Shown: positions 838 to 64,000 of the stretch, one piece after another | Layout: each line of letters opens with the position of its first letter | Position numbering within the stretch: position 1 is the first letter of the stretch | Virus record (IMG/VR): IMGVR_UViG_3300032226_000829 | Length of the DNA stretch: 64,000 bases | Reading direction: 5' to 3' (one strand) | Source of the DNA: a virus | Taxonomy: Duplodnaviria; Caudoviricetes | Notes under the pieces: model-generated | Told to the model about the DNA's origin: nothing | Databases searched by the model: none | What the model saw: the letters and a program-made list of their open reading frames with translations, nothing else | Translations under genes and position numbers: made by a program

Positions 838-888
838 AGATTATACACAATTTTTATTGATAATTTGTGTGTATATTTATGGTAATAT

Positions 889-3484: not shown

Positions 3485-3727
3485 ATGAAACTGCAAGAAA
3501 TTGGCATAGACATCACACAAGAAGTGGCAGCCAGCAAGTCACTGTGTCGCAGCCGCAAAAGCAATTCAGAACTGGGAGCCAGTCAATTGGCATCCTGCAA
3601 GAGTCAAGGTCTGAGACGCAGAGAAGGCAAAAAAAGTTTCAAGATAGGTCGCAAACGAATCAAGGTCAAGGACAAGATCATCAAAGGAAAACCCTACGGA
3701 GGACCTTTGCCCTTGTACAGTAGATGA
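3485..3727 (+). CDS. Small basic hypothetical protein (MKLQE...)
   Basis: 80 aa, very Lys/Arg-rich; TAAATA 5 nt upstream of the ATG; overlaps the next gene start. Confidence 0.65.
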   Translation: MKLQEIGIDITQEVAASKSLCRSRKSNSELGASQLASCKSQGLRRREGKKSFKIGRKRIKVKDKIIKGKPYGGPLPLYSR

Positions 3728-4286: not shown

Positions 4287-5486
4287 ATGCTGCCAATTGA
4301 CAAATTCACACAGGTCACGGATCAACTGAAAGAGTCCGGCAACTATCGTGTGTTCAATGACATACAGAGAGAAAGGGGCAGTTTTCCCACCTCCATATGG
4401 CATTCCAAATACAACATCAAAAAAGTGGTCAATTGGTGTTCCAATGATTATCTTGGCATGGGCCAACACAAGGTTGTGTTGGATGCCATGCGTACAGCAT
4501 TGGATCATGTGGGAGCAGGTTCTGGTGGTACTCGAAACATTTCAGGTACCTCACATTATCACGTGGCATTGGAGCAAGAGTTGGCTGTGTTGCACCGCAA
4601 ACCAGCTGCATTATTGTACACGTCTGCCTACGTCGCAAATGAATGGACGTTGATCGCTTTGAAAAAAATCATTCCGGATGTTGAATACGTAAGTGATGAT
4701 AAAAATCACGCCAGTCTCATTCAAGGTATGAGACACAGTGGTGCTGTGAAGCATGTATTCCGACATAATGATATGAAGGATCTAGAAAGCAAACTGATGG
4801 CCGTCAAAGGCACTCCCTGCATTGTCTTTGAATCCGTGTATAGCATGGATGGGAGCGTAAGTTTGATTTCTGAAATTTGCGAACTTGCCGACAAATACCA
4901 CGCCATAACTTACATAGATGAAGTGCATGCCGTGGGTTTGTACGGCGAGCAAGGCGGAGGCATGGTGCAACAGTTGGGGCTAGAATCCAGAGTGGACATC
5001 ATCAATGGCACCTTGGGCAAAGCATTTGGCTGTCATGGTGGATACATTGCTTCAGCTGCAGAATTGATTGATGCTGTGAGATCAGTGAGTTCAGGATTTA
5101 TTTTTACCACTTCGCTGCCACCAGTGGTGTGTGCAGGTGCCACTGCCAGTATTAAATTTTTACGAGATGAAACAGGTCAGGTATTGAGAGAAAAACATCA
5201 AAGCATGGTGTATCAGACCAAACAGGCACTGAGAGCAGCCCACATAGAAATATTGGAGAATCAAACCCACATTGTGCCAGTGATGGTGAGAGATCCAAAA
5301 AAATGTAAAAAAATAAGTGATCATCTGTTGTATGAGCATGACACATATATTCAACCCATCAATTATCCCACAGTGCCTGAAGGTACCGAAAGATTGAGAA
5401 TAGCACCCACTCCCAATCACAATCAAGTGATGATAGACACATTGATCAAAGGGCTCACCACAGGGTTCACTAAATACAACGACTAA
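4287..5486 (+). CDS. hemA: 5-aminolevulinate synthase (PLP-dependent, C4/Shemin pathway)
   Basis: WCSNDYLGM, GAGSGGTRNISGT, FESVYSMDG, DEVHAVG, GTLGKAFG (PLP lysine), IFTTSLPP, QPINYPTVP.G.ERLRI. Confidence 0.95.
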   Translation: MLPIDKFTQVTDQLKESGNYRVFNDIQRERGSFPTSIWHSKYNIKKVVNWCSNDYLGMGQHKVVLDAMRTALDHVGAGSGGTRNISGTSHYHVALEQELAVLHRKPAALLYTSAYVANEWTLIALKKIIPDVEYVSDDKNHASLIQGMRHSGAVKHVFRHNDMKDLESKLMAVKGTPCIVFESVYSMDGSVSLISEICELADKYHAITYIDEVHAVGLYGEQGGGMVQQLGLESRVDIINGTLGKAFGCHGGYIASAAELIDAVRSVSSGFIFTTSLPPVVCAGATASIKFLRDETGQVLREKHQSMVYQTKQALRAAHIEILENQTHIVPVMVRDPKKCKKISDHLLYEHDTYIQPINYPTVPEGTERLRIAPTPNHNQVMIDTLIKGLTTGFTKYND

Positions 5487-6673: not shown

Positions 6674-7468
6674 ATGATTAGTGATATCAAACAGCGTCAG
6701 ATACTCAGTCTCAATGAATGGGAACAGAGCCTACTGTTTGCTGAGCTCAGCATGATTGCCTACAATGACGAAAAAAAAGCCACAGCACAGGCAAAAGAAA
6801 TAGGATTCACAGAAGTGCATTTCTTTGATCACAAAGGTGCTCAGGGTTACACTTTTGAAACTGCCACAGATCTAGTGGTGGCCTGCAGAGGCACTGAACC
6901 CACAGAATTCAATGACCTAGCAGCAGATCTCAGAGCGTTGCCTGTGAAAAGCCGCACCATGGGCAGGGTACACAAAGGATTCAAATTGGAAGCAGACAAG
7001 ATCTGGGAAGGATTAAAAAAGCAGATTGAAACATCAGAAAAAATCACATGGTTCACTGGACACAGTCTGGGTGCTGCCATGACCACACTTTGTGCTGCAA
7101 GATGTTTTTATTTGGCTCCACAGATCACTGTGGGTGCCATATTCACTTATGGTTCGCCCCGAGCAGGTTGGAGAGGGTTTGTGAACAATCTACATGTGCC
7201 ACACTGGCGCTGGGTCAACAATGCAGACGTGGTCACACGTGTGCCATTGACTGTGATGGGCTATGTGCATCACGGCAAAATCAGATACATCAACACTTTT
7301 GGCAATGTGAGAGAGTTTACCTACTGGCAAAGATTCAAGGACAAATGGCGTGGCATATGGCGTGGGTTGAAGAAATTGTCATTCAAGAATTTCAGTGATC
7401 ATGGCATGGCCAATTATGTGGCTCACATTGCCAAAAAAGTTCAAAACAAAGAATATCCACAGCAATAA
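6674..7468 (+). CDS. Class 3 lipase (alpha/beta hydrolase)
   Basis: VVACRGTE, VHKGF, FTGHSLGAA nucleophile elbow, TYGSPR, NNADVVTRVP, C-terminal DH. Confidence 0.9.
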   Translation: MISDIKQRQILSLNEWEQSLLFAELSMIAYNDEKKATAQAKEIGFTEVHFFDHKGAQGYTFETATDLVVACRGTEPTEFNDLAADLRALPVKSRTMGRVHKGFKLEADKIWEGLKKQIETSEKITWFTGHSLGAAMTTLCAARCFYLAPQITVGAIFTYGSPRAGWRGFVNNLHVPHWRWVNNADVVTRVPLTVMGYVHHGKIRYINTFGNVREFTYWQRFKDKWRGIWRGLKKLSFKNFSDHGMANYVAHIAKKVQNKEYPQQ

Positions 7469-7833: not shown

Positions 7834-8588
7834 TGCAACTCAAAGAAGGTGGCAATATCTTCAAAGGTGCTGAAGGAGAATTGCTCACAGGTAGAATCAA
7901 TCAAGCAGATGTGGCACCCACAGTGAAATGGTTGGAAGGTATCACAGGATTATCTTTGCAGGATGCCATGTTGGGCACCACAGGCAAGGCTCCCACCAGC
8001 GGTGATATGGATTTGGGTGTGGATGAAAGCAAAATCAGCAAAGACGAATTGGTAGCAAAATTATCTCAGTGGGCACAATCACAACAGCAAGATCCCAAAC
8101 AGTGGGTGCGCAAAAGTGGTATCTCTGTACACTTCAAAACTCCCATTGGCGGTGATATGAAAAAAGAAAAATTTGTTCAAACAGATTTTATGTTTGGAGA
8201 TCCCACATGGCAAAAGTTCAGTCTGCAAGGTGGCACAGTGGGCAGTGATTACAAAGGTGTTGATCGTCACATATTGCTGGCCAGCATTGCCAAAGCGTTG
8301 GGATATCGTTGGAGTCACAACTATGGATTGCTCAATCGCGAAAGCAATCAACCAGTGAGCAAAGATCCAGACAGAATTGCTCAACTGTTGTTGGGTGTGG
8401 ATCACACAGCCAAAGATTTAAACAGTGTGGAGAGTATCCACAAAATTATTCGTGGCCGTTCTGACTATGAAAAATTAATAGCAGATGCTGTGGAGTCATT
8501 TGCCAAAGCAGGCAAGCGATTGCCTGAGCACACAGTGGAAGGTTCTAATGTGTGGTTTAGAAACATGATGAATGTGGTGGGCAGATGA
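7833..8588 (+). CDS. Pol-beta superfamily (PolX-like) nucleotidyltransferase
   Basis: LGTTGK...SGDMDL (hG[S/T]xnDhD), third Asp in VQTDFM, C-terminal AKALGYRWSHNYGL resembling the PolX thumb. Confidence 0.7.
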   Translation: MQLKEGGNIFKGAEGELLTGRINQADVAPTVKWLEGITGLSLQDAMLGTTGKAPTSGDMDLGVDESKISKDELVAKLSQWAQSQQQDPKQWVRKSGISVHFKTPIGGDMKKEKFVQTDFMFGDPTWQKFSLQGGTVGSDYKGVDRHILLASIAKALGYRWSHNYGLLNRESNQPVSKDPDRIAQLLLGVDHTAKDLNSVESIHKIIRGRSDYEKLIADAVESFAKAGKRLPEHTVEGSNVWFRNMMNVVGR

Positions 8589-9727
8589 AATTAGTAGAAT
8601 TCAAAACAATCACAGGACGTTGTGACATATTGCTGGAAGATGCCAGAATACATCACCTGGAAGATTTTGTGCTGTGGAATGGCAGTCAAGGAGCCAGTCA
8701 AGCATTGGACGCACTCAGTAATATTAATAAAAATTTAAAAAGTGTCACAATCAAATGGGATGGTGCCGTGGGAGTGATCTTTGGAAGAAATCCCAATGGA
8801 GAATTCATATTCACAGACAAAGCAGGATTTGTGGCCAAAGGCTATGATGGTAGAACCACCAATGCAGATGATTTGGGTGCCATGATACAAGGTCGTGCCA
8901 AAGATGTGAACAAGGCAGCGGACTATAAAGTTTTTGCTGACAAAATGAAATCAGTGTTTCCCATCATTGAATCTGCCACTCCAGAAAACTTGGCGGGGTA
9001 TTACCGAGCAGACATATTGTATTTTCAACAGCCTGAATTAAAAGATGGCAGATACCAGTTCAAACCCAATGTGGTCACCTACAGTGTCACACCAGACAGT
9101 GTGTTGGGCAAAAAAATTGCCAAAAGTTCTGTGGGCGTGGTGATTCACAGCATGATCAATGAGCAGGGCACTGAACAGCCTGTGCCAGATGATTTAGAAT
9201 TCAAAGGCAGCAAACTGCTGGTGGTGCCACCAGTCACTGTGAGCAATCCTGTGCAGTTGGATACCACTCAGTTGGCTCAGGTAAAATCCATGCTGACACA
9301 ACATGCCCGAGACATTGACACAGTGTTGGATCGCAACAAATTGACTGCAATGAAAGTGTCAGATTTTGCCAACATACTGTACACCTATGTGAACAGCAAA
9401 GTGCTCACTGGCATGAAAGACTTGGGCAGAGATTTTGTAAAATGGCTCACAACCACCAGTGCTGTGAGTCGCAACAAACAAGGCAAAATTGTGGATTACG
9501 TGAAACAGAATGTGGTGGGATTCAATGCACTGTGGAAAGTATTTGCAGGCATTCAAGCAGCCAAAGATTCAGTGATTGCACAATTGGACAATCAAGGGTC
9601 GGATGTGACTGCCAGCATCAACGATCAACCAGGTGGTGAGGGCTATGTGATACAAACAGCTCAAGGCCCAATCAAATTGGTGAACAGAGCAGGGTTCTCA
9701 AAAGTGAATTTTGCACTAAATAGATAG
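8585..9727 (+). CDS. Covalent nucleotidyltransferase (RNA/DNA ligase-like) protein
   Basis: Motif I TIKWDG, motif III-like YRADILY, motif IV EGYVI, motif V IKLVNR. Confidence 0.6.
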   Translation: MKLVEFKTITGRCDILLEDARIHHLEDFVLWNGSQGASQALDALSNINKNLKSVTIKWDGAVGVIFGRNPNGEFIFTDKAGFVAKGYDGRTTNADDLGAMIQGRAKDVNKAADYKVFADKMKSVFPIIESATPENLAGYYRADILYFQQPELKDGRYQFKPNVVTYSVTPDSVLGKKIAKSSVGVVIHSMINEQGTEQPVPDDLEFKGSKLLVVPPVTVSNPVQLDTTQLAQVKSMLTQHARDIDTVLDRNKLTAMKVSDFANILYTYVNSKVLTGMKDLGRDFVKWLTTTSAVSRNKQGKIVDYVKQNVVGFNALWKVFAGIQAAKDSVIAQLDNQGSDVTASINDQPGGEGYVIQTAQGPIKLVNRAGFSKVNFALNR

Positions 9728-29682: not shown

Positions 29683-30276
29683 ATGGTTATGCGAGCTGAC
29701 TTGTGGTTTCCACAAATTGTATGGAAGGACAACATTACAAATTTGGACAATTCTGCCATAAAAACTCATGTGTTGGAAACAAAAAATCATAGTCAAGGCA
29801 AAACTGCCACCAATCAATTGGGATGGCAGAGTGAAGATTATTTTTTAGATTCAGGCAAAACACCACAGATAGAACACATGATAAGAGTATTGGATTCTCA
29901 TGTGAAAGATTGTGCTCGTCAGGCCAGTCTACCTCCCTTGCGTATCTGTAATTTTTGGTTTAATGTGAATCCCAAAGGATCCTACAACACTCTACACAAT
30001 CATCAACACAGTGTGCTGAGTGGAGTGTATTACATTGACATACCCACGGACAACATGGGCAACATTGAATTCCATAGATCAGATGAAGCACAGTATTATA
30101 TTCCGGACAACATGGACAAGTACACACAATTCACCAGTACCAAAGCCACATATAAACCAGAAACAGGCATGTTGTTGATATTCCCCAGCTGGCTCAAACA
30201 TTTTGTACACAGCAATCAAAGCGAGCAGTCACGCATATCCATGAGTTTTAACACTCAACTGGACACACAAAAATAA
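29683..30276 (+). CDS. 2OG-Fe(II) oxygenase-like protein
   Basis: WFNVN...YN..H.H..SVLSGVYY, LLIFPSWLKH.V, R.SMSFN. Confidence 0.85.
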   Translation: MVMRADLWFPQIVWKDNITNLDNSAIKTHVLETKNHSQGKTATNQLGWQSEDYFLDSGKTPQIEHMIRVLDSHVKDCARQASLPPLRICNFWFNVNPKGSYNTLHNHQHSVLSGVYYIDIPTDNMGNIEFHRSDEAQYYIPDNMDKYTQFTSTKATYKPETGMLLIFPSWLKHFVHSNQSEQSRISMSFNTQLDTQK

Positions 30277-30401: not shown

Positions 30402-30851
30402 ATGAACAATAGAGCACTAACTATCTTTAATCAACTAAGACCCGTTACAGTGGGCTTTGATAACGTTTTTGATCACTTCGAAAGAATGGTCAATGACGAT
30501 TTCTTTAACGTACCTACTGTTAACTATCCACCTTACAATATTGTAAAGACTGGCGTTAATACGTACAACGTTGAAGTGGCTTTGGCAGGATTCAACAGAG
30601 ACGATGTTTCTGTGGAATTTGAGGAAGGGGTAATGACCATCAAATCCAAAGACCGAACAGAGTCTAAGAAACAGGATGCGGATGATAACATTATCCACAA
30701 GGGTATTTCCAAAAGATACTTCAGTAAATCATTCACAGTGGCCGATGATGTAGAAATCAAAGGTGCTGAATTAAAAGATGGTTTACTAACTGTTTCTATG
30801 GAAAGAATCGTTCCAGAAAACAAAAAAGCCAGAGTAATAGAAATACTATAA
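30402..30851 (+). CDS. Small heat-shock protein (Hsp20/IbpA family)
   Basis: NYPPYNI, VEVALAGF, IHKGIS.R.F...F, AELKDGLL. Confidence 0.95.
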   Translation: MNNRALTIFNQLRPVTVGFDNVFDHFERMVNDDFFNVPTVNYPPYNIVKTGVNTYNVEVALAGFNRDDVSVEFEEGVMTIKSKDRTESKKQDADDNIIHKGISKRYFSKSFTVADDVEIKGAELKDGLLTVSMERIVPENKKARVIEIL

Positions 30852-30898: not shown

Positions 30899-31201
30899 AT
30901 GAGCAAAACCAAAACCGATATAGTCCTAGACGAAAAAGTAGAACAGATAATATTAGAACCAGAAATGGTCAAAGTGATCATGTTGAATGATGATGTTACT
31001 CCAGTAGACTATGTGGTAGAACTATTGATAAAAATATTCAAACACACTCAAGACAGTGCCAAAGAAATCACACTTAAAATTCACACAGAAGGCAGCAGTG
31101 TGGTGGGTTCCTACAGTTATGAAATAGCTGAACAGAAAACCAAAGAAGCCATAGAAGATGCCAGAAGCAGAGGCTTTCCTCTACAAGTAAGAATGGAATA
31201 A
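30899..31201 (+). CDS. clpS: Clp protease adaptor ClpS
   Basis: KVIMLNDDVTPVDYVVELL, IH.EG..VVG.Y..EIAEQK, FPL. Confidence 0.92.
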   Translation: MSKTKTDIVLDEKVEQIILEPEMVKVIMLNDDVTPVDYVVELLIKIFKHTQDSAKEITLKIHTEGSSVVGSYSYEIAEQKTKEAIEDARSRGFPLQVRME

Positions 31202-31203
31202 CA

Positions 31204-31737
31204 ATGAGCCTCAAAGATCTCACTTGGGAACATCATAAGAACGCAGAACGTCAAAAGTTTGTGAAGGTTATGTTTTCAGGCAGCATTGATCCCAAATTGT
31301 ACGCAGAATTTTTATTCAATCAACACATGGCATACGACTTGTTGGAAATGATGGCCATGTCGCACGGCATATTCAATGGAATGGAAGATGTGAGAAGAGC
31401 TCCTAAAATATTAGCAGATTTCAAAGAACTTTGGCCCAAGGATCAAACATTGCCTGAACCCAAAAACGCAACCAAGACATATTTGGATCATTTACTCACA
31501 ATCAAAGACAACAAGGATGCACTGATGGCTCACGTGTATGTGAGACACATGGGAGATCTGTCAGGTGGACAAATGATACGTAAAAAAGTTCCAGGTGCTG
31601 GCACCATGTTTGATTTTGCAGACAAAGATCAAGCCAAAGAGATTATCCGATCAAGAATAAACGATTCCATGGCAGATGAAGCTAAAAAATGTTTTGATTT
31701 CGCCACTGGGTTGTTTCAGGACATGCTCAATGACTAA
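31204..31737 (+). CDS. hemO: Heme oxygenase
   Basis: LKDLTWEHHKNAE (proximal His), YVRHMGDLSGGQ, EA..CF.F. Confidence 0.92.
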   Translation: MSLKDLTWEHHKNAERQKFVKVMFSGSIDPKLYAEFLFNQHMAYDLLEMMAMSHGIFNGMEDVRRAPKILADFKELWPKDQTLPEPKNATKTYLDHLLTIKDNKDALMAHVYVRHMGDLSGGQMIRKKVPGAGTMFDFADKDQAKEIIRSRINDSMADEAKKCFDFATGLFQDMLND

Positions 31738-39038: not shown

Positions 39039-39250
39039 ATACTGATATCACACTGCTGATGGGCATAGTATTATTGCTGATGTTGGGTGCTTTAATCGGT
39101 TGGTATCTGAGTGAAAGATGGTATTCCCAAAGACTTTTTATCATACTGGAAGAGTGCAAAAAATTAAATGCAGCCACCATCACACTGTGGCAAGACATAC
39201 TCAAACACAAAGAAAAAAATCTTCAAGATCAAGACAATTTACCTAAATAG
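39035..39250 (+). CDS. Single-TM hypothetical protein
   Basis: N-terminal hydrophobic helix. Confidence 0.55.
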   Translation: MNTDITLLMGIVLLLMLGALIGWYLSERWYSQRLFIILEECKKLNAATITLWQDILKHKEKNLQDQDNLPK

Positions 39251-39259
39251 GTTGATTTT

Positions 39260-40129
39260 ATGTTCAAATGGCTATATAGCTGTTATAGCATGAATGATAC
39301 CGCAGAAAAATATCGTCCCAGCATACAGGATAGAATCGCAGAGAGAGTGCGTGAAATAGTTGTGCCAGTGGAAGACTGGTTGGATCGATTGATTACCATG
39401 CCTGATAGATTTAATCCTGAAACATTCCAACTGATAGAACATTTCAAAAAAGAAAAAGTGGGTGGCGTGCATGCCCGTAAGATTATAGAAATGTACGAAA
39501 CTCAATACAAAGAATACAAGGATCTATTGGAACTGAGAAAAAAGAATTTAAAATTTAAAGAGATTGACGAAGAAGGAGAAGGTGATTCTGAAGAAAGACA
39601 ACTGTTGGAATCATACGAAGACGTCAGCAATGAAGTGATAGAAAAAGGTATCAAAGCTCATGATAACATATTCAAAGCCTGCGATTATATGATAGATATT
39701 GCCAATGCCAATCGTAAACCACGCAAGAAGAAACTCATCAGCAAAGAAAAAATGGTATCCAAATTACAATATTGTGTGGAAGACACCAAGTACAATTTAA
39801 AAAGCATTGATCCCAAAGATATTATCACAGCCGAACAGGTATGGGTGTTCAATACAAAAACTAGAAAATTAGGCATATATGTGGCCAGTGTGTTGGATCC
39901 TAGAGGACTCAACAGAGAGGGCACAGGATTGAGTGTGAAAGGTGCCAGCATACAAGGATTTAACCCAGAAAAAAGCATACAAAAGACCCTTAGAAAGCCT
40001 GAACTGCAACTGAATGAATTTATGAAGTGTGGCCCAGTTAAATCCAAGACCTTTTTCACAGAGATCAACAGCATGGAAATTGCCCTCTCAGGACGCATTA
40101 ATTCGGACACCGTATTATTAAAAGTTTAG
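39260..40129 (+). CDS. Hypothetical phage protein
   Basis: 289 aa; WVFNTKTRKLGIY, TLRKPE. Confidence 0.75.
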   Translation: MFKWLYSCYSMNDTAEKYRPSIQDRIAERVREIVVPVEDWLDRLITMPDRFNPETFQLIEHFKKEKVGGVHARKIIEMYETQYKEYKDLLELRKKNLKFKEIDEEGEGDSEERQLLESYEDVSNEVIEKGIKAHDNIFKACDYMIDIANANRKPRKKKLISKEKMVSKLQYCVEDTKYNLKSIDPKDIITAEQVWVFNTKTRKLGIYVASVLDPRGLNREGTGLSVKGASIQGFNPEKSIQKTLRKPELQLNEFMKCGPVKSKTFFTEINSMEIALSGRINSDTVLLKV

Positions 40130-40130
40130 A

Positions 40131-40138
40131 TATAAATA
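40131..40138 (+). promoter_or_regulatory. T4-type late promoter (TATAAATA); representative of many TAAATA motifs in the window
   Basis: Exact T4 late consensus 7 nt before ATG 40146; TAAATA also at 3474, 4276, 5597, 6662, 10618, 11050, 41499, 44546, 56417 and 57139. Confidence 0.75.
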
Positions 40139-40145
40139 GTAGTGT

Positions 40146-41036
40146 ATGTCAAAATCCATTGAACGCAATATAGCATCAGTTAATAAAGGAGCAGACGATT
40201 TTACCACTGGTTTAAAACAGTTGGCACAATCTGCAGCAGATGCCATCAACAACAAGCATATTCAAGAGAAACCCATTGAGTTCATGGGCACTGCTGACAA
40301 TGGTATCTACGGCAAAGGACTACAGTGGACCGGAGTTGGACAAACCAAATATCTAGTGCTGCAGGCCACTCCAGACAGAATTTGGAGCAACGTCAACATA
40401 GATTTAAAACCAGAGAATCATTACAGCATTGACAACACATCAGTATTGAGTGCCAATGAGTTGGGCAAAACCGTGACCAAGAGCAATCTACGTCAGGTGG
40501 GCACATTGAATAATCTGGTGGTGTCAGGCAATTTAAACGTGAGTCAATTTGTTATTTTTGATTCGGGCATGAACAGACTGGGCGTGGGCACAGAAACTCC
40601 AAATGCCACATTATCAGTGGCCAGCAACACTGTGGAATTTATTGTGCAACCAGGTGTGTCTGCAGCAGACATAGGCACTCATACCAACAGTGGTCTTAAT
40701 ATTAAAACTGACAACACAGATAGAATTTCAATCACAGCCAATGGCCATATCACTTTGGGATTGAAAGGCAACACTGAAACTAAAATTAATATGTACGGCA
40801 GAGTGGGTATTGGTGTTACCAGTGTGGAATCAGATGTGAGTCTCAGCACTTCAGGAGCAGTGAAATTCCAAAACAAAAAATTTGAAATTGGCAACAGTGA
40901 GCCTTTGGCAGGATCTTACACTCAGGGTGATGTGGTATGGAACAGTGCACCAACTCCAGGCAACGTAATAGGTTGGGTGTGTGTGTTGACCGGCACTCCA
41001 GGACAGTGGAAATCATTCGGCGCAATAGCCAATTAA
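40146..41036 (+). CDS. Fibre-like virion protein
   Basis: VGTLNNLVVSG, RLGVGTETPNATL, VGIGV repeats; C-terminal GDVVWN..P..G..IGWVC...G.PG.W. Confidence 0.6.
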   Translation: MSKSIERNIASVNKGADDFTTGLKQLAQSAADAINNKHIQEKPIEFMGTADNGIYGKGLQWTGVGQTKYLVLQATPDRIWSNVNIDLKPENHYSIDNTSVLSANELGKTVTKSNLRQVGTLNNLVVSGNLNVSQFVIFDSGMNRLGVGTETPNATLSVASNTVEFIVQPGVSAADIGTHTNSGLNIKTDNTDRISITANGHITLGLKGNTETKINMYGRVGIGVTSVESDVSLSTSGAVKFQNKKFEIGNSEPLAGSYTQGDVVWNSAPTPGNVIGWVCVLTGTPGQWKSFGAIAN

Positions 41037-41037
41037 T

Positions 41038-41484
41038 CTAAGTACTCATCACATCTTTGAGATATTTCTTATTCCAATATTTGTAATAATTCTTTGATCG
41101 CAAGAATTTTCTAGCAGACTCTAATTTGGATCTTTTTTGACACAGTATAAGATTGTACAAACCGTTGTTGGTTCTCACGTTTTTAATTTGAGTTTCTTCA
41201 TCCCAATGATCAGCTAGGAATACATATTCCTTATGAGTATCATTCAATTGATCGCACAACTCATACATGTCTTTCTTTTTCATGCGAAATTCTTTGAGAT
41301 ACAACAGCACGTCCAAGGTTTCCAACAGTGTTTGGTCTTTTTCAAATCTAATCTTTTTGCGTACTCTGTCTAGGATCTTATATCGGGCACGGACAGCATA
41401 AGGACACACTGCCAACCCTCCCAATTCTGATTGAACCATGCTGAGATGTTTGGTCCAGAGCTTGATGTGTGATTTCATAGACAT
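41038..41484 (-). CDS. Hypothetical protein
   Basis: VCPYA motif; start at 41484 downstream of a minus-strand TAAATA. Confidence 0.6.
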   Translation of the reverse strand: MSMKSHIKLWTKHLSMVQSELGGLAVCPYAVRARYKILDRVRKKIRFEKDQTLLETLDVLLYLKEFRMKKKDMYELCDQLNDTHKEYVFLADHWDEETQIKNVRTNNGLYNLILCQKRSKLESARKFLRSKNYYKYWNKKYLKDVMST

Positions 41485-48800: not shown

Positions 48801-51800
48801 TTATGACGGACCAGCAGGCACAGCAACTTTATTGTTGAATGCCAGCAGCAATGGCGGATCAGGCTTTGTGATCACTTCACCCATTCCTTACACCACTATT
48901 CTGCAGACAGCAGGCAATAGATCCATGTTGGCCAATGACTTCACACAAGTGAACGATTTGGGTTATGGTCTTTTGGTTACCAATGGTGCATTGTCTGAAC
49001 AAGTGAGCACATTCACTTACTACTGTCATGCTGCCTACATGGCATTGAATGGAGGACAGATCAGATCTTTGAACGGCAGTAATGCCAATGGTGTGTATGG
49101 ATTAGTGGCTCAAGGTTCAGATCCTTTGGAAGTTCCAGATGATGTGGATCTGGTACGCAACATGGCACAAGTGGCCAAAGTGTATGATGATGGAGCCACC
49201 TATGATCACCCATTGCTGGCACTGAGCATTTATGTGTACGATTTAGAATATGTACCTCACAACAGATCTGAAATTGAAATAGATCACGATCCTTTGGATT
49301 CATCTGTGACTCTGGGCATACAAAGATATGAAGTGGCCAGTGTGGAATTGGTATCACCACCCATCACTGTGACAGGTCCTTCTGTCACACGTAATGGCAC
49401 AGTGTACAAATTAAATCTCAGCACTGCCGGCACTGACAATGCTTCCACCACAGGACTCAAAGCAGTGTTGTCTAATCAACAGAACGTGACCATCAGAGCC
49501 AGTCAATCGCATCAATTCAGCAACGTGGGCAATGTGTCTCCCACACGTCCCAGCACAGCATTGGTATTTTATGATGACACCACTGATGTAGTTTATAGAA
49601 CCACAGCATTCAACACCACCAACGCAGTGGGCACAGCATTGCCATCCAACAACGTGATTGCTTCTTTTGATACCACATTTGATTCTGTAAGATTACAAAT
49701 ACGACCAGCATCAGCTGTGTTAACTACCTACGCTGGCACAGGAACTACCATGGGAGCCACAGCAGGCGACGTGGTGTTGGCCATTGAACAAATCACTGAA
49801 GCTGTGGACATTACCAGATTGAACACAGGCAACATGAGCTTTGGTTGGGCAGGTAAAACACACAGAGTCACAGGCTATGTGGACCGAGGCACTTATGCCA
49901 CTGTGAGCATTGTGGATATCAGCAATATCAATACCTCAGGACCAGCAGCGGGAATTCAAGAAACATTGGTGCGTGGTGCTGGCACAGAAAACATTGTGTT
50001 GCGTTGCGGACTATTGGCTGGTGCCAATGCAGACATCACAGTGAAAATTTCCACCTGTAGAGCCACAGGACACGATTTCTTAGACATTGGCACAGGATCA
50101 TTCAACAACAGCAACTACCCCAATAATATTTTTGGTGATCCCACAGCATTGCCTGCACAAGAAAATGAAGTGGATGAACGAGGCAAAGGTAGAGTGTTCT
50201 ATGTGAGCACCGATCAAGACGGTGTGTTTAGAGTGGGTAGATTCTTCACAGTGGATCAAGGCACTGGATCAGTCACATTCTCAGCTTCAATTGCACTCAG
50301 CAACTTGGATGGATTAGGATTCAAACGAGGTGTGGTAGCATCAGAATTCAGCACAGACTCTGCTATGACAGACAATGCTTCGGATACCATACCCACAGAA
50401 TCAGCTGTGCGTGGTTACGTGGATAGAAGATTACATTACACACAAGGCAGTTCATTGGTGGGCAATCCTATTGGACCTGGTGCAATAGCCAGAGATGGAA
50501 CCACCAGTTTCACTGCTGATATCAGTGCAGGCGGATTCAAACTGATCACATTGGGCGCTCCCACTTCATCACAGGATGCTGCCAACAAAGCCTATGTGGA
50601 TCAAACATTGTATGCCAGTGATCAGGTAGAAAATTTAAGAAATGTGGACATTGCAGGGTTTGCTGCCAATCAGATATTGGTGTTCAATGGCAGACTTAGA
50701 ATATTCACCACACCAGAAACAGGCGGATTGTTTGCAGTGGGCAACACCATCACAGGCAGCAGCACAGGCACAGTGGCCACCATAGTGGATTATGAATCAG
50801 TGGTATTGCCGGGCGCATTGAATGCAAGACGCATAACTTTTGCATCAGTGTCAGGTCCTGGCTTCAGCACATTGGATTCTATCAGCACAGGTGGTGGGGT
50901 ATCAGCACAAATAATTGATGGTCCAATGAATGAATTGGCCAATGGAGTGATGAGTGGCAGTACAGATATTTCAATCACAGCCACAAGAAGCACTGCACAA
51001 ACAGATTTAAATTTACAAATAGTAGCTGGCAGCATCATCAATGCAGATGTGAACGCAGCCGCAGCCATTCAGCAGAGCAAGTTGGCCATGACAGCTGCCA
51101 CCACCAGAGTGAACGCCACAGGCATCAGTCAGGCAGATCTTGGATTGGCCAGCTTTGATTCCAGCACTTTCACAGTGACCAACGGCTGGGTGCAGATTGA
51201 TTCAGGTGATTTGGCCATCAGCAAGATTGAGAACATGGCCACTGACACAGTGATAGGTCGCAGTGCAGCTGGCACAGGAGCTCCCAGCGCCATAGCATTC
51301 AGCACAGTGATCAGTGATGGTGGAGGATTAGAAGATGGAGATTTTGCCACAGAATTACTGGCTGCATTGGATCCAGGAGAAGCACTGATCAAAACAGGTG
51401 CCACTTCATATGCTCGAACCAATGTGAGCACCTCAGGCGAAGTGAACAGTATTATTAAATCAGATGCCACAGGCATTGTGGATGTGGCAGCATTGAAGTT
51501 GGATGGACAACTGTTGATAGACAGCAACACCGGCACCAACACTTCGCTGTTCTACACCAGAGGCAGCGTTAATTTTTTACAAGCAGTGGGCAATACCACT
51601 GCCAACACCACACTCACATTCACAGGTAGAAAATTTCAATTTGGTGGTAGCACAGTGCCCAATTCACCCACTGCTGATGCACTGCAGAGCGCGGCATTGA
51701 ATGAAGGCCGAGGCATAGCCACACCTCACTTGTTCACAAAATTCATTGAAACAGATTCAGTGGAATCAGGCGGCACAGGTATAGCACTGGGAGCAGGTGG

Positions 51801-52386
51801 CAGCACATTGGCTGGCGCAGGCAAGATCAGTATTGTGTTGGCAGGAGCAGTGCCATTCATATTTGCAGGTGATGCAGACGATTCCACTATCACCACACCA
51901 GGAGTTTATCCTGACGCAACTGACACATACACCATTGGTAATGCTTCGGCCAGATACAAAACAATTTTTGCTGAAGTGTTCCACGGCACAGCAACCAACG
52001 CATTGTACGCAGATTTGGCAGAGAAATATTTGGCAGACCAGGAATATGATTCGGGCACTGTGTTGCAGTTTGGTGGTGACAAAGAAGTTACCATCACCAC
52101 AGAAGCCAACACCAACAAGATAGCAGGTGTGGTGACCACAGCACCAGCATTTTTGATGAATGATCAATTGAATGAAGAGAACACAGTGGCAGTGGCACTG
52201 CAGGGTCGTGTGCCATGCAAGGTGATTGGAAAAATTGCCAAAGGTGACATGCTGGTGGCCAGTGCAATGTCAGGTGTGGCCTGTGCAGCTGAAGGTGAAA
52301 TTAAAATAGGCACAGTGATTGGTAAATCGCTGGAGCATTATGATTCAGATCAAGTGGGTGTGATTGAGATTGCGATAGGTAGATAA
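45829..52386 (+). CDS. Very large baseplate/tail protein (2185 aa), gp9/gp10-like N-terminus, C-terminal autoproteolytic-chaperone-like domain
   Basis: INIG..GNDGTGD.IRDAF.K.N.NF.ELY N-terminus; C-terminal YADLAEKY...GVV.T.PA.LMN...VALQGRVPCKV. Confidence 0.8.
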   Translation: MAKQNINIGVEGNDGTGDSIRDAFRKANENFTELYAVFGQGGQIAFTSLSDTPDTLGIFKLPISNSTGTELEMRSLSGGVGISVSLATAGQIVISNTGSELVDDLSPSLGGPLNANGFAVGNAEVTSQAVSNFNSTHGTNITIDELLITKGYADQRYIKLGGGASGAAGQIRVRSEPVDATAYTKTISSYSAGNAVVTAHGFDSSVNGLEVIYNTTGSAASGLVNGSTYYIRYVNDNQLSFHASFAQATNNDDVTRIKITVAGGTGTQTFTDAAYDDTLAGFFLSDEAMPRESIVRRQGDTMTGALYLHDHPGDLSGLGAPNGTDDLQAATKFYVDNTSYASESNLFVSTRGDDRMDGVPPDKVGRSFSYAYKSINAACVKAEEIMLATPVELGPYTQTITYDDGASDSIVVTEGVTSGSGYNNVKLLIDANRTFIIKQMIGFVNATYPNFTYDELICERDLGYILDGIVIDVLADLNSNVRSIQAGIRYYSNVSAAKAINQQLTETLAGINYAKSITNTVLQNNAVTPIYNAGFTQTFDAPSTVNSTGRSSVGAKFDIITNIIQNGISSAPPEVEGSTYTMTISNGGFGNVDQNDPSNQDLIPGKLIRGKTTGAIGRIVSVAAGGAADTVQVILIEPLEFLVGEGLEFASQFKRNNITIRVESGTYLEDFPIRVPDGVSIKGDEFRRVIIRPKNRISQSQFANTYFYRDLVIDGLTVTTTNFGRHYLVNPTAVVNTGVNYTNVGGYDTQALTILNAKPAIQNAVVSYVNSLLSPSSLNAANEARNRRETGTIVDAIFSDLKTGGNEKILEVQGNFYNSGLIAQEQAGISYIATYINASVIASASATIKNIVTAQMARVVYAFNGSYNPPKHNRNMDMFLMGEATILRNISSQGQGGFMCVFDPASQILNKSPYIQTASSFSASINTQAFRGGMFVDGSCGNIPINITNVVNPFELDVDSNAGQGLFIRKPLTPTAFYIDGVRYQVDAIKNYDGPAGTATLLLNASSNGGSGFVITSPIPYTTILQTAGNRSMLANDFTQVNDLGYGLLVTNGALSEQVSTFTYYCHAAYMALNGGQIRSLNGSNANGVYGLVAQGSDPLEVPDDVDLVRNMAQVAKVYDDGATYDHPLLALSIYVYDLEYVPHNRSEIEIDHDPLDSSVTLGIQRYEVASVELVSPPITVTGPSVTRNGTVYKLNLSTAGTDNASTTGLKAVLSNQQNVTIRASQSHQFSNVGNVSPTRPSTALVFYDDTTDVVYRTTAFNTTNAVGTALPSNNVIASFDTTFDSVRLQIRPASAVLTTYAGTGTTMGATAGDVVLAIEQITEAVDITRLNTGNMSFGWAGKTHRVTGYVDRGTYATVSIVDISNINTSGPAAGIQETLVRGAGTENIVLRCGLLAGANADITVKISTCRATGHDFLDIGTGSFNNSNYPNNIFGDPTALPAQENEVDERGKGRVFYVSTDQDGVFRVGRFFTVDQGTGSVTFSASIALSNLDGLGFKRGVVASEFSTDSAMTDNASDTIPTESAVRGYVDRRLHYTQGSSLVGNPIGPGAIARDGTTSFTADISAGGFKLITLGAPTSSQDAANKAYVDQTLYASDQVENLRNVDIAGFAANQILVFNGRLRIFTTPETGGLFAVGNTITGSSTGTVATIVDYESVVLPGALNARRITFASVSGPGFSTLDSISTGGGVSAQIIDGPMNELANGVMSGSTDISITATRSTAQTDLNLQIVAGSIINADVNAAAAIQQSKLAMTAATTRVNATGISQADLGLASFDSSTFTVTNGWVQIDSGDLAISKIENMATDTVIGRSAAGTGAPSAIAFSTVISDGGGLEDGDFATELLAALDPGEALIKTGATSYARTNVSTSGEVNSIIKSDATGIVDVAALKLDGQLLIDSNTGTNTSLFYTRGSVNFLQAVGNTTANTTLTFTGRKFQFGGSTVPNSPTADALQSAALNEGRGIATPHLFTKFIETDSVESGGTGIALGAGGSTLAGAGKISIVLAGAVPFIFAGDADDSTITTPGVYPDATDTYTIGNASARYKTIFAEVFHGTATNALYADLAEKYLADQEYDSGTVLQFGGDKEVTITTEANTNKIAGVVTTAPAFLMNDQLNEENTVAVALQGRVPCKVIGKIAKGDMLVASAMSGVACAAEGEIKIGTVIGKSLEHYDSDQVGVIEIAIGR

Positions 52387-54750: not shown

Positions 54751-56403
54751 ATGTCAGACATGAAAGAATATGTGGTCACTGTGCGTAACCGTTCAGACAT
54801 AGACAGTTTCTATGATGACATGGAGAGCGTGGGCGGAGATCTACACATTCCCAATCGCAGAGTGGAAATAACAGCACTAAGAGAGATTAGTAGAAGTACA
54901 GATTATCTTTTAACTGATCAAGAAGCAGAATTATTACGTAAAGATCCTAGAATACTAGATGTTTTATTAAAAGAATCTATTAAGACTGCTAAACCTAGTT
55001 TTACACAAACAGGAAATTTTGATAAATCTAGTGTTAATAATAATACGCATATAAATTGGGCTTTATTAAGATGTGAAGAAGGAGTACAAAGATCAAATTG
55101 GGGAGGTTCTGGTTGGTCAGGTAATCAGATAGTTGGAAATACAAATCAATCAGCAACTGTTTCTATCACAGGACAAGGAGCACATGTTGACGTAGTAATT
55201 GTGGATGGACATCTAAATCCTAATCATCCAGAATTTGCTGTCAATGCAGATGGTACAGGTGGCAGTAGAGTAATACAGTATAATTGGTTTCAACATAACC
55301 CTTCAGTGACATTTGGCTCTGTTGGAAATTATCTTTATACTGTGGGAGTAAGTGGTACACAGTTAAGTGATGACAATCACGGCATGCACGTGGCTGGCAC
55401 CGTGGCTGGCAACACTCAAGGTTGGGCTAGAAAAGCCAATATTTACAATATTAATCCATATGGTACTAATCCTAATGGTAATATAGTTTCTTACATAGTG
55501 GATTATATTAGACAATTTCATCTTAATAAATCAATTAACCCTGTCACCGGTCGTAAAAATCCCACAATAGTCAATAACAGTTGGGCATTTATTGGTGCCT
55601 CTTATCTACCTAATCAAATTAGTTCTGTTACATATAGAGGAACCACATATAATGGTCCTTTCAATTTAAACACATTGAAGAATTCCTATGGAATTCTTAA
55701 TGATGGAACATATGCTTACACTCCTGGTGTGATTTATAGTTTCATAAACGCTGAAATAGAAGATGCTATTGATGATGGTATAATAATTGTAGCAGCAGCA
55801 GGAAATGAATATTATAAAGTTGATGCTTACGGTGGATCTGATTATAATAATTTTATGACGGCTAATGGCTTTATAGAATATTATCACAGAGGAAGTCATC
55901 CTGGATCTGCTTACAGATCTGACAACACAAGAACTACAATAACCGTTGGTGCTTTAGATGCTACTGTGAACGAATACAAAACGGAATTTAGTAATTGTGG
56001 AGCAAGAATAGATGTTTATGCTCCTGGGGCTTTTATTATGAGCAGTGTACATACTGGTGGAACAACTGATTCTAGAAATAATGTCTATAGATTAGAAAAA
56101 TACAGTGGAACTAGCATGGCTAGTCCGCAAGTAACAGGAGTTTTAGCCTGTGCATTAGAAAAATTTCCAAATATGTCTAATGATGAAGCGTTAAATTATT
56201 TAAGTGCTTATAGCAAATTAAATCAGGTAGCTGACACAGGTGGAGGATATGGTGATTATAGGTCATTACAAGGGTCAACAAATAGATATTTGTTTTTTAA
56301 AAAAGAAAGACCTTTGTTAGGCGATATATCACTTAATACATTCAAAACCAGGCAATCCACAGGTGCTGCTTACCCAAGAACACGGATCAGAAGATTTGGT
56401 TAA
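54751..56403 (+). CDS. Subtilisin-like S8 serine protease with N-terminal prodomain
   Basis: Triad DVVIVDG / HGMHVAGT / GTSMASPQV; AAAGN oxyanion motif. Confidence 0.92.
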   Translation: MSDMKEYVVTVRNRSDIDSFYDDMESVGGDLHIPNRRVEITALREISRSTDYLLTDQEAELLRKDPRILDVLLKESIKTAKPSFTQTGNFDKSSVNNNTHINWALLRCEEGVQRSNWGGSGWSGNQIVGNTNQSATVSITGQGAHVDVVIVDGHLNPNHPEFAVNADGTGGSRVIQYNWFQHNPSVTFGSVGNYLYTVGVSGTQLSDDNHGMHVAGTVAGNTQGWARKANIYNINPYGTNPNGNIVSYIVDYIRQFHLNKSINPVTGRKNPTIVNNSWAFIGASYLPNQISSVTYRGTTYNGPFNLNTLKNSYGILNDGTYAYTPGVIYSFINAEIEDAIDDGIIIVAAAGNEYYKVDAYGGSDYNNFMTANGFIEYYHRGSHPGSAYRSDNTRTTITVGALDATVNEYKTEFSNCGARIDVYAPGAFIMSSVHTGGTTDSRNNVYRLEKYSGTSMASPQVTGVLACALEKFPNMSNDEALNYLSAYSKLNQVADTGGGYGDYRSLQGSTNRYLFFKKERPLLGDISLNTFKTRQSTGAAYPRTRIRRFG

Positions 56404-60543: not shown

Positions 60544-61059
60544 ATGCGAACAGACAGTTTAGGTTTACCCATATTCGATCATCATGACGCTGTAGATTTA
60601 ATTTACCAAAATAAATTATCAGTGCTCACAGATCTTCAGTTTGAATCTCATCAAGACATTGATACTTTTAATCAATCAGCACAACTCACAGGAGTGGGCA
60701 CACCTTTGAGAGTGTACAAGCCCATGCTGGTGGATGTGAAAGAATTTGACAAGTTGCTGCAGAGTGAATGGTTCATGCCAGACAGTATGAAAAAATTTGA
60801 CATTGAATCACACATATTAAACATTGCTCCCAAACATGCTCAGGCGAGAGTACAGGAGGAATTGGCAGCATTCAAACAACACAATTATTTGAATCTATTG
60901 AAATTTTTGCATTATTTGGTACAAAACATGCGTGAGAACCAAATTCTTTGGGGAGTGGGCCGAGGCAGTTCAGTGGCATCCTATGTGCTGTATCTGTTGG
61001 GTGTACACAGAATTGATTCCATCCAATATGGCTTGGACTGGCGAGAGTTCCTTAGATAA
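60544..61059 (+). CDS. Stand-alone fragment of DNA polymerase III alpha (DnaE)
   Basis: RVQEEL, GVGRGSSVASYVLYLLGVHRID, ...WREFLR*; ends just before the PDxDxD catalytic motif. Confidence 0.8.
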   Translation: MRTDSLGLPIFDHHDAVDLIYQNKLSVLTDLQFESHQDIDTFNQSAQLTGVGTPLRVYKPMLVDVKEFDKLLQSEWFMPDSMKKFDIESHILNIAPKHAQARVQEELAAFKQHNYLNLLKFLHYLVQNMRENQILWGVGRGSSVASYVLYLLGVHRIDSIQYGLDWREFLR

Positions 61060-61086: not shown

Positions 61087-61386
61087 ATGGCTATCAAACA
61101 GAGTGGTAACAAAGTTTACAAGAGTATGCAGGGCAAACAGATTGATATTGATCTGTTGAGACAACGCAACGAATTAACTCCAGCTGTGGGCAATGCTAGA
61201 GTGAATGCTCGCGGTGACGAATTAGGCGCTGGTGGAAAAATTGTTCGCAAACGTGAGGAAGTTTTGGCTGATTATTACAGAGATCATCCTAAGACTGTGC
61301 CTACCACAAGAGCAAAAGCAAAAGCAGACAACACCAATGAAGAGTGGGTGGAAGATGCTGAAGGTAATTTCGTTAAGAAAAAATAA
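61087..61386 (+). CDS. Hypothetical protein
   Basis: Strong RBS; AVGNARVNARGD.LG.GG.I motif. Confidence 0.75.
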   Translation: MAIKQSGNKVYKSMQGKQIDIDLLRQRNELTPAVGNARVNARGDELGAGGKIVRKREEVLADYYRDHPKTVPTTRAKAKADNTNEEWVEDAEGNFVKKK

Positions 61387-61389
61387 ACT

Positions 61390-61749
61390 ATGAGCTCATA
61401 CAAGATTCTTGAGGGAGAATTGATTCCGATCAAGGATCGTGTGATTGTGAGCGACATGAGTTTCGATTCTATAACCACCAAAGGTGGCATCATATTGAAT
61501 TCAGATGATGGCAAGGTGCATGGTATCAAACCTAGATGGGCCAAAGTGTACGCCAAAGGCAAGGACAACACAGATGAATACACTGTGGGTGATTGGATTT
61601 TAGTGGAGCATGGCAGATGGACCAGAGGTGTCAAAATCAAAACCAACCACACAGAACAAGTGCTGCAGATGGTGGAAGCCAAAAGTGTTATGATTTGGTC
61701 AAAAGAAAAACCAGAAGAATCCTACGTGAACAAAGAAAATCAACTCTAA
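61390..61749 (+). CDS. groES: GroES-like co-chaperonin
   Basis: PIKDRVIV, TKGGIIL, KVYAKG, VGDWIL. Confidence 0.85.
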   Translation: MSSYKILEGELIPIKDRVIVSDMSFDSITTKGGIILNSDDGKVHGIKPRWAKVYAKGKDNTDEYTVGDWILVEHGRWTRGVKIKTNHTEQVLQMVEAKSVMIWSKEKPEESYVNKENQL

Positions 61750-61789: not shown

Positions 61790-61957
61790 ATGAAATTTCC
61801 TGAAACTAGAAATCCTGGATTAAACACCACTGGTGTGTTGGGGATCACATTGATGATATTGCATATCATAGGATATCTTATGGGATGGTGGTGGATGTTG
61901 ATATACATACCTTTGATACTGTCAGGCATGGGACAAGAATTTTTAAAAAGGAACTAA
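61790..61957 (+). CDS. 55-aa membrane protein (not in ORF track)
   Basis: MKFPETRNPG...LGITLMILHIIGYLMGWWWMLIYIPL; TAATG coupling to the next gene. Confidence 0.65.
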   Translation: MKFPETRNPGLNTTGVLGITLMILHIIGYLMGWWWMLIYIPLILSGMGQEFLKRN

Positions 61958-62874
61958 TGAAAGAACTTTGGACAGAAAAATACAGACCTAAAACACTGGA
62001 TCAATATGTGTTTAGAGATGAACATCAGAAAAAACAAATTCAAACTTGGGTCAAAGACAAGAGCATTCCTCATTTATTGTTCAGCGGCAATGCTGGCATA
62101 GGCAAAACCACATTGGCCAAGATACTATTGAATGAATTACAAGTGAATGATCTGGATGTGTTGGAAATCAACGCCAGCAGAACAAACTCTGTGGATGATG
62201 TTAGAGCAAAAATTGTTAACTTTGTGCAGATGATTCCGTTTGGTGATTTTAAGGTGGTATTGTTGGATGAAGCAGACTATCTATCTCCCAACGCACAGGC
62301 AGCACTGCGTGGTGTGATGGAAGAATATCACACAACATCAAGGTTTATATTAACTTGCAACTATCCCAACAGAGTTATACCAGCATTACACAGCAGATGT
62401 CAAGGATTCCACATTGAACGTGTGGATCAAACAGAATTCACAGCCAGAGTGGCTGAAATATTAATGAAAGAAGGAGTAACTCCAGATTTAGAAACATTGG
62501 ACACTTATGTTAAAGCCACATATCCAGATCTTAGAAAGTGTATCAATGTGGTACAAATGAACGCACAGAATGGCGTGTTATTAAAACCACAAAAAAGCGA
62601 CACAGGAGAATCAGATTACAAACTGGGCATGGTAGAATTATTCAAAGCAGGTAAAATCACTGAAGCAAGGAAGTTGGTATGCAGTCAAGTGAGACCCGAT
62701 GAAGTGGAAGACATTTACAAATGGATGTATGATAATATCACATTGTTTGGTAATGACACACGCCAAGAAAAAGCTATTATAATCATAAAACAAGGACTAG
62801 TGGATCATACACTGGTGGGAGATCCTGAAATAAATCTTGCTGCCACCATGATCAAACTTTCCCATATGGAATAA
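61957..62874 (+). CDS. Sliding-clamp loader subunit (RFC/gp44-type AAA+)
   Basis: WTEKYRPKTL, GNAGIGKT, INAS, LLDEAD, SRC, DLRK..N; start at 61957. Confidence 0.93.
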   Translation: MKELWTEKYRPKTLDQYVFRDEHQKKQIQTWVKDKSIPHLLFSGNAGIGKTTLAKILLNELQVNDLDVLEINASRTNSVDDVRAKIVNFVQMIPFGDFKVVLLDEADYLSPNAQAALRGVMEEYHTTSRFILTCNYPNRVIPALHSRCQGFHIERVDQTEFTARVAEILMKEGVTPDLETLDTYVKATYPDLRKCINVVQMNAQNGVLLKPQKSDTGESDYKLGMVELFKAGKITEARKLVCSQVRPDEVEDIYKWMYDNITLFGNDTRQEKAIIIIKQGLVDHTLVGDPEINLAATMIKLSHME

Positions 62875-62875
62875 C

Positions 62876-63187
62876 ATGTACAGAGCCAGTCATATATTAA
62901 TCGGTTATCAAGGTGCAATGAGATACACAGGTCCTAGAACACAGGAAGAAGCCATGTTTGAAACTGCAAGAATAAGAAATGAAATTGCTCAAGGTGTGAT
63001 CACATTTGAAGATGCTGCTGTGAAATACAGTGATTGTCCCAGCAAACAGAATCAAGGAAATTTAGGCACATTCAAACCCAGCACAATGGATCAAGATTTT
63101 ATTGCTTTTATTGACACATTACAAGTGTCTGAAGTCAGTGGAGTTTGTCCCACTGTGTACGGATATCATATTATCCGAAAAAATTAA
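62876..63187 (+). CDS. Parvulin-type peptidyl-prolyl isomerase
   Basis: ASHILI, FEDAA.KYSDCPS...G.LG.F, YGYHII. Confidence 0.9.
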   Translation: MYRASHILIGYQGAMRYTGPRTQEEAMFETARIRNEIAQGVITFEDAAVKYSDCPSKQNQGNLGTFKPSTMDQDFIAFIDTLQVSEVSGVCPTVYGYHIIRKN

Positions 63188-63903
63188 TCTCCGTAAATAT
63201 CCAACACTTCTTTCACAGCAGGATGACGTTCAATGTCCCCTTTGTGAAAACTCACTATATCAATGCGTTGAGCTTTGTCTGTTTTATTTAATTTTTCTAT
63301 AAAATCCAACAATCCATTATCGTGCTGTCTGTCTGCTTGATTTAAATCACCTGTCACAGCCATTTTAGATCCTTGACTCAAACGTGTGAGCAACATCTTC
63401 ATTTGACTGTGTGTGGTATTTTGACACTCATCTGCCACTATGAATGCTCGTACAAAATTCCTGCCTCGCATGAATGCCAAAGGTGCTATTTCAATCACGC
63501 CTTCATACATCATACTTCTAAGATCTTCTGTGCGAAAGTATTCTTGAAACACATCAAATATAGGACGTGTCCATGGTGCCATTTTTTCTTCCAGTGTGCC
63601 AGGTAAAAAACCAATGTCTTCATCCACACTCACTGCTGGTCTGGTGATGATGATGCGATCCACCTGTCTTTGTTTGAACATTTTGATGGCCACCTGAACT
63701 GCCAGCAATGTTTTGCCTGTGCCAGCAGGTCCCACACCGAATACAATGTCTTTGCTGGGGTCTAACAGTTTGATTAGGTAGGATTCTTGATTCTTATTGC
63801 GGGGTATTATTTGGACATCTTTTTGTTTTTCTATTTGATATTGATTAATTTTGAGTACATTATTGTGCTTGGATTGCTTTTTGAAAGCATTTTTTGAACC
63901 CAT
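63184..63903 (-). CDS. phoH: PhoH-like ATPase
   Basis: GPAGTGKT, TRPAV, GFLPG, RGR, DECQN, GD..Q.D, RHP; RBS aaggag favours start 63903. Confidence 0.95.
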   Translation of the reverse strand: MGSKNAFKKQSKHNNVLKINQYQIEKQKDVQIIPRNKNQESYLIKLLDPSKDIVFGVGPAGTGKTLLAVQVAIKMFKQRQVDRIIITRPAVSVDEDIGFLPGTLEEKMAPWTRPIFDVFQEYFRTEDLRSMMYEGVIEIAPLAFMRGRNFVRAFIVADECQNTTHSQMKMLLTRLSQGSKMAVTGDLNQADRQHDNGLLDFIEKLNKTDKAQRIDIVSFHKGDIERHPAVKEVLDIYGD

Positions 63904-64000
63904 CGACGCTCCTTGGTTAATGGTAATGTACAAGTATTTATGGAGATTAAGTGTCTATAAAACTACCATGTTATACCTATTGCTATGGCTAAATAATGTA

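Follow-up and report, generated by a model that had tools for sequence, protein, structure and literature searches.

An ORF encoding the front part of a C-family DNA polymerase

The window analysed here, a 64-kb (64,000-nucleotide) stretch of the Caudoviricetes record IMGVR_UViG_3300032226_000829, contains on its + strand at positions 60544-61059 an ORF of 171 codons plus stop, which begins with ATG, ends with TAA and is called the N-unit below. No obvious Shine-Dalgarno sequence is found in the 21-nt spacer 5' of the ATG. This start is supported by the conservation of M1, D4, G7 and P9 in 37 relatives. On the 3' side, a spacer of 27 nt carries three in-frame stops (TAA, TAA, TAG), and the next ORF encodes an unrelated 99-aa protein. 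Several independent lake metagenomes contain an identical N-unit protein, on contigs of up to 322 kb, and public databases already label it 'DNA polymerase III alpha subunit'.

Two regions can be distinguished in the protein, an N-terminal domain (residues 1-75; 60544-60768, + strand) delimited by conservation and model confidence, and the first palm segment of DnaE (residues 92-170; 60817-61053, + strand) recognized by Pfam, phmmer and VIA-align. The Pfam model PF07733 (DNA_pol3_alpha) matches the N-unit with an E-value of 7.8e-14 and 52.3 bits (cut-off 23.9), its profile positions 16-94 of 260 corresponding to residues 92-170. This is the sole Pfam match, neither a PHP domain nor any further DnaE domain being detected with this database. 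A phmmer search of PDB sequences equates the same residues with 315-392 of E. coli Pol III alpha, and in the alignment to 2HNH the GVGRGS sequence at residues 137-142 (60952-60969, + strand), the G-S nucleotide-binding motif of the Pol-beta-like fold, faces GPGRGS 359-364. Over its full length, the N-unit matches phrog_11127 ('DNA polymerase', 171 positions; E 5.6e-36).

The ORF closes with LDWREFLR plus stop (61036-61059, + strand), a break point conserved as the same end in relatives. Its last residues, WREFLR, correspond to FERFL 388-392 of E. coli Pol III alpha, the Arg having moved by one position between FERFL and WREFL, and the chain ends at the equivalent of L392. In M. tuberculosis DnaE1, the match of the N-unit family profile stops at 406 while MPDIDIDF starts at 413, so that about 7 residues would separate the end of the ORF from the catalytic PDxDxD motif. 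Since only the equivalent of residues 315-392 is present, the N-unit chain holds none of the catalytic Asp. These results agree with the initial annotation, which had described a 171-aa DnaE piece ending just before PDxDxD, devoid of a PHP domain, with its own start and stop and with no continuation downstream.

The break point is fixed and the N-unit is under purifying selection

Using tblastn, we found the N-unit in isolate phages including the PA5oct/MIJ3-type Pseudomonas phages (45% identity), Atu_ph07, Vibrio phage 2.275.O and the Rak2-like phages GAP32, K64-1, 121Q and CBB, as well as others. Named homologues are MIJ3_00130 of Pseudomonas phage MIJ3/PA5oct, GAP32_323 and Atu_ph07 gp316. 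The gene encodes 122-177 aa in MIJ3, GAP32, Atu_ph07 and Vibrio phage 2.275.O, the value of 122 being that of the Vibrio annotation. The proteins of the isolates end with EFL[KRE], to which GAP32 and the Vibrio phage add at most two residues. In IMG/VR, 115 stretches encode relatives of the N-unit, of which 80 were kept (47-99% identity); all 80 end with LDWREF[LI]R followed by the stop, and in each the distance from the first residue of GxGRGS to this end is exactly 35 residues.

Among 37 relatives, the residues of the nucleotide-binding motif are the most strictly conserved of the protein, W136 to L149 around GVGRGS being invariant. The dN/dS ratio is 0.12-0.19 (relatives with dS of 0.45-1.35), which corresponds to purifying selection. 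No full-length dnaE occupies the place of the N-unit in the 80 IMG/VR relatives or in the four isolate phages. Thus, both outcomes that had been named against the initial proposal are at odds with the data, relatives having no full-length dnaE at this locus and the ORF evolving non-neutrally, as the dN/dS test suggested at that time now shows. Only four singletons came up in a search for longer proteins, and in each of them the N-unit is either extended by read-through from upstream or fused to domains of another enzyme. None of the four is a whole dnaE or joins the N-unit to the missing catalytic part, which is weak evidence that such a fused form is absent.

As a separate observation, in the singleton protein P0001 (ENA, 666 aa), the ...EFLE end of an N-unit is followed without a break by the C-terminal portion of a ribonucleotide reductase. 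This protein may be a rare fusion, or else an error of gene calling or assembly.

A second gene carries the catalytic Asp in relatives

When the MIJ3 genome was scanned for DxDxD, a 200-aa ORF came to light at 51202-51804 (MIJ3_00061), which is annotated as hypothetical and called the C-unit below. Its sequence starts with MAKVVTDVDIDV, followed in order by H-x-x-GVY, K-I-D-L-L (with the third Asp), IRP and FKKAH, and its neighbours are RecA-, helicase- and primase-type genes. The protein matches phrog_11778 ('DNA polymerase') with an E-value of 1.7e-63 and weakly matches positions 579-679 of a full-length phage DnaE profile. Searches of the MIJ3 genome with PF07733 and PF17657 did not detect it, and C-units are seen only by the PHROG model, by the family profile and by a weak PF17657 match (E 0.0086).

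Members of the C-unit family measure about 185-200 aa and keep all three catalytic Asp. The exact MPDIDID start is present in 102 of 129 environmental C-units, and D3, D5, D7, D65, the R-P of IRP and FKKAH do not vary among 52 diverse members. On M. tuberculosis DnaE1, the C-unit profile covers residues 413-424 (MPDIDIDFDDRR), 565-663 and 773-787. As the N-unit profile ends at 406 and the C-unit profile starts at 413, the two units abut in whole DnaE. The thumb of the C-unit is short, with about 60 residues between DxD and the third Asp versus about 150 in whole DnaE, and most of the fingers are gone. The family is abundant in the environment, where its C-units form at least 7,998 clusters at 90% identity.

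The two halves occur together in relatives

Both halves are encoded in MIJ3, where they lie 43.5 kb apart with the C-unit upstream; the distance is 34 kb in GAP32, 34 kb in K64-1 and 182 kb in Atu_ph07. In isolate phages, the counts of N-units and C-units by host genus are 34 and 34 for Escherichia, 8 and 8 for Salmonella, 8 and 8 for Erwinia, and 4 and 4 for Xanthomonas. The two genes are also found together in three large IMG/VR contigs (G002, G003 and G013; 66-72% estimated completeness). In G012 (73% complete), the C-unit is present and the N-unit was not detected, and the distant relative G019 contains a C-unit. Co-occurrence of the halves, put forward as a check together with a search for a small ORF starting near PDIDID, is thus observed in isolate jumbo phages and in the three contigs. 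The small ORF was found in isolate phages and IMG/VR contigs and not within the 64-kb window.

Within the window, a regular-expression search for DxDxD did not find a C-unit, and an HMM built from the 52 C-units gave a best E-value of 0.29 against the 1136 open frames, the positive control scoring 6.5e-71. There is no C-unit in the close fragments G007-G011 (N-unit 78-99% identical; 10-17% complete) or in G006 (116 kb, N-unit 80% identical). The C-unit of MIJ3 is found a few kb before a gene that matches the window at 7.6 kb. The corresponding region of the window contains tail-fibre and metabolic genes instead. The MIJ3 C-unit region thus appears to be replaced in the window, and the partner is expected elsewhere in the lake phage genome. 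When the MIJ3 C-unit was compared with the window by tblastn, the sole match (E 0.005) lay inside the 2OG-Fe(II) oxygenase ORF at 29683-30276 and was rejected as spurious.

An N-terminal domain in place of PHP and structure models of both chains

The first 75 residues of the N-unit occupy the place of the PHP domain of full-length DnaE. Ten positions in this part are identical in 37 relatives (D4, G7, P9, Y21, N43, Y58, F68, D69, Q73 and E75). It is modelled as a small alpha/beta domain of about 60-75 residues, with ten-residue block means of pLDDT of 84-92 over residues 11-60. VIA-align gave no fold match above Z 2.9 for residues 1-75, and an Atlas look-up gave no named family.

With the whole N-unit model, VIA-align ranks seven C-family polymerase chains first (Z 5.9-3.7), the next, unrelated chain having a Z of 2.9; the alignment places model residues ~62-170 on chain residues 271-405/423. 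A Foldseek comparison of the same model with the PDB returned nothing significant, its best match being Pol III alpha (E 0.34). With the C-unit model, Foldseek retrieves Pol III alpha in each of its eleven best matches, with probabilities of 0.69-0.98 and E-values of 0.016-0.27. A match of the N-unit profile to PDB 3L9F (E 0.0017, profile positions 46-118) was taken as a chance helical match.

In the single-chain models, residues 131-171 of the N-unit and residues 1-70 of the C-unit are of low confidence, with block means of pLDDT of 49-62 and 43-58, respectively, and the other domains of both models are confident. Such poorly modelled half-palms would fit a mutual dependence of the chains, the palm being folded only when both are present.

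Gene neighbourhood and a conserved 99-aa gene

The gene directly 3' of the N-unit encodes the 99-aa protein (61087-61386, + strand; phrog_14844). The second gene downstream is GroES/gp31-like (61390-61749), and after it come a clamp loader gene (61885-62874; phrog_168, E 1.7e-78), a PpiC-type prolyl isomerase gene (62876-63187) and phoH (63184-63933, - strand), so that a position two genes from groES and near the clamp loader had been read correctly. Gene order in the window is collinear with MIJ3. The succession of N-unit, small conserved ORF and GroES-like gene is common to MIJ3, GAP32, Atu_ph07 and Vibrio phage 2.275.O, three of these four having the clamp loader further on. The T4-related jumbo phages with the split enzyme would be expected to have an RFC-type clamp loader and a family B polymerase; the latter was found in all five relatives tested and not inside the 64-kb window.

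The 99-aa gene follows the N-unit directly, with a gap of 22-32 nt, in 76 of 77 IMG/VR loci, and it is also next to the N-unit in the four isolate phages just named. Its counts by genus among isolate phages equal those of both polymerase halves in the main groups. The protein consists of a conserved N-terminal part of about 60 residues (RG..VD.[DE].L...NE..VAVGNANMNARGD.LG.GG) and a charged tail, and an Atlas look-up gave no named family for it. It is a candidate third component of the system, or merely a clade-specific neighbour.

Comparison with known split and whole enzymes

On the basis of sequence, Iyer, Anantharaman, Krishnan, Burroughs and Aravind (2021, Viruses 13:63, PMC7824862) defined a 'minimal split Pol III alpha' in the group 2.2 jumbo phages. 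The N-unit studied here resembles that of group 2.2 (phrog_11127) in its size, its domain content, its break point and its 45% identity to the PA5oct-type protein, and the neighbourhoods are alike in the small ORF, the GroES-like gene, the clamp loader and PhoH. It differs in coming from an uncultured lineage of lake water and in that the C-unit position of MIJ3 is not used. We are nearly certain that 60544-61059 encodes the N-terminal unit of a split minimal Pol III alpha of these T4-related jumbo phages; it is one more example of a kind known since 2021 and not a discovery. According to Iyer et al., the split Pol III may work together with the family B enzyme when strands are synthesized or repaired (PMC7824862).

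The N-unit shares with bacterial Pol III alpha (E. coli 2HNH, T. aquaticus 2HPI/3E0D and M. tuberculosis DnaE1 5LEW) the first palm segment with GxGRGS, and once the C-unit is added, the likeness extends to the triad of DxD and third Asp and to the core finger motifs. By contrast, the split enzyme has no PHP, clamp-binding, HhH or OB part, its thumb and fingers are drastically reduced, its active site is distributed over two polypeptides, and the N-unit contains an extra N-terminal domain. Judged by the definition of a single-chain DnaE, which comprises PHP, a whole palm with three Asp, thumb, fingers, clamp-binding part and OB, the N-unit is not a DnaE.

In cyanobacteria, the DnaE-n and DnaE-c halves of a split-intein DnaE are joined by protein trans-splicing. 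As in the phages, a C-family polymerase arises from two distant genes. However, the break lies in the fingers in cyanobacteria and in the palm in the N-unit/C-unit pair. Moreover, intein halves are not found at the phage break, as nothing follows EFLR in 80 of 80 relatives and C-units start with MPDIDID. The N-unit and C-unit must therefore remain separate chains.

The N-unit also matches near the C-terminal ends of the phrog_13169 and phrog_7513 profiles (337-409 of 463 and 395-442 of 461), which represent pieces of about 460 aa made of PHP plus front palm. This suggests that these pieces have a similar break point; unlike the N-unit, they keep PHP, and they are parts of a full-size DnaE encoded by separate genes, which may serve as the only polymerase of the phage.

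A split enzyme of this type would mean that a polymerase active site can be made from two chains without an intein and that a C-family polymerase can be cut to about 360 residues. A single lake instance adds little to this, and the family is very abundant in environmental phages. PA5oct, 121Q, Rak2 and Atu_ph07 are cultured carriers of the split enzyme, in which a bench test would be easy; no report of such a test of the split mini-Pol III was found in the literature searched.

Proposed mechanism and alternatives

The data gathered above are best accommodated by an accessory enzyme whose active site is shared between two chains, and we regard this explanation as a whole as highly probable. The N-unit would contribute the first segment of the palm together with the GxGRGS loop, by which C-family polymerases hold the incoming nucleotide triphosphate, and would be unable to act alone because it is without the catalytic carboxylates. 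The C-unit, encoded far away, would supply the metal-binding strands, the third Asp (in K-L-D-F-L) and the template-binding part, its thumb and fingers being much smaller than in whole DnaE. Most likely, the two chains join non-covalently, without an intein, to complete one active site of the Pol-beta fold. That the N-unit works only with the C-unit, one active site being formed from two chains, is in our opinion likely. The proposal of the initial annotation that a minimal C-family polymerase is naturally split, the ORF being one of its halves, is thus strengthened by the fixed end, by selection, by the MPDIDID partner in relatives and by the published architecture. As for its function, an accessory short-patch DNA polymerase or nucleotidyltransferase, acting in repair, gap filling or a special replication step, seems most likely. 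The lack of a full thumb and of clamp-binding, OB and PHP parts, together with the family B replicase of these phages, speaks for an accessory enzyme and against a main replicase. We give even chances to templated DNA synthesis by such an accessory enzyme, its main alternative being another kind of nucleotidyl transfer. With thumb and fingers so reduced, templated synthesis by the split enzyme is not assured.

According to this alternative, the two-chain protein would be a specialised nucleotidyltransferase of the Pol-beta fold, involved in tailing, in a priming-related reaction or in the synthesis of a nucleotide signal, perhaps with the 99-aa neighbour as third component, and not a templated polymerase. 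The shrinkage of the thumb from about 150 to about 60 residues, the loss of most of the fingers and of all clamp-binding, OB and PHP parts, and the family B replicase found in five of five relatives tested are in keeping with this idea, as are the 99-aa gene fixed beside the N-unit with the same distribution and the conserved extra N-terminal domain without a recognised fold. We nevertheless consider it rather unlikely, since IRP and FKKAH, the finger motifs that remain, are invariant DnaE motifs, the C-unit of MIJ3 sits among replication and recombination genes, and no feature of other nucleotidyltransferase families was found. A still bolder version, which we mention as a long shot, is that the mini-Pol III is a three-part machine in which the 99-aa protein, the N-terminal domain of the N-unit or both would tether or regulate the two catalytic chains, for a specialised non-replicative nucleotidyl transfer new to C-family polymerases.

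The initial annotation had also envisaged a decoy acting on the host replisome, so that the N-unit alone would be a decoy or modulator that binds it, as could be imagined for a free-standing piece resembling the host replicase and encoded near a clamp loader gene. This is contradicted by several observations and appears very improbable: the N-unit is without the DnaE parts known to contact clamp, tau or epsilon (as judged by Pfam), its nucleotide-binding loop is the most strictly conserved element, it co-occurs with a catalytic partner, and the hosts span bacterial classes with differing DnaE (enterobacteria, Pseudomonas, Xanthomonas, Agrobacterium and Sinorhizobium). Even more remote is the idea that the N-unit is what is left of a full-length phage dnaE, recently truncated or in decay. 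Nothing speaks for it beyond the fact that the N-unit is a domain fragment, and it is opposed by the identical end point in 80 of 80 relatives, by the dN/dS of 0.12-0.19, by the same size and neighbourhood in distantly related isolate phages and by the longer-protein search, whose four singletons contain no whole dnaE. Both the decoy and the pseudogene ideas are effectively excluded, leaving the two-chain enzyme as the preferred explanation.

Other genes of the window

Several other genes were assigned in the window. Five of them are host-like auxiliary genes, coding for an ALA-synthase/KBL-type aminotransferase of class I/II (4287-5486), a heme oxygenase (31204-31737), ClpS (30899-31201), an Hsp20 (30402-30851) and the 2OG-Fe(II) oxygenase (29683-30276). 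The presence of both the ALA-synthase-like and the heme oxygenase gene hints at tetrapyrrole metabolism. The window further contains genes for an AlgH-like protein (DUF179; 3724-4266), a class 3 lipase (6674-7468) and a 550-aa subtilase beside tail-fibre-like genes (54751-56403). A DUF6267 protein (E 1.9e-40) is encoded at 8585-9727 on the + strand, its gene overlapping the end of a 251-aa ORF that has no Pfam match. Finally, the tail-fibre-like gene at 883-2844 (- strand) shows 93% nucleotide identity to positions 39086-41047 of IMGVR_UViG_3300008119_000566, which is otherwise a different and only distantly related phage. Judging from this comparison, the gene looks like a recently exchanged receptor-binding module.
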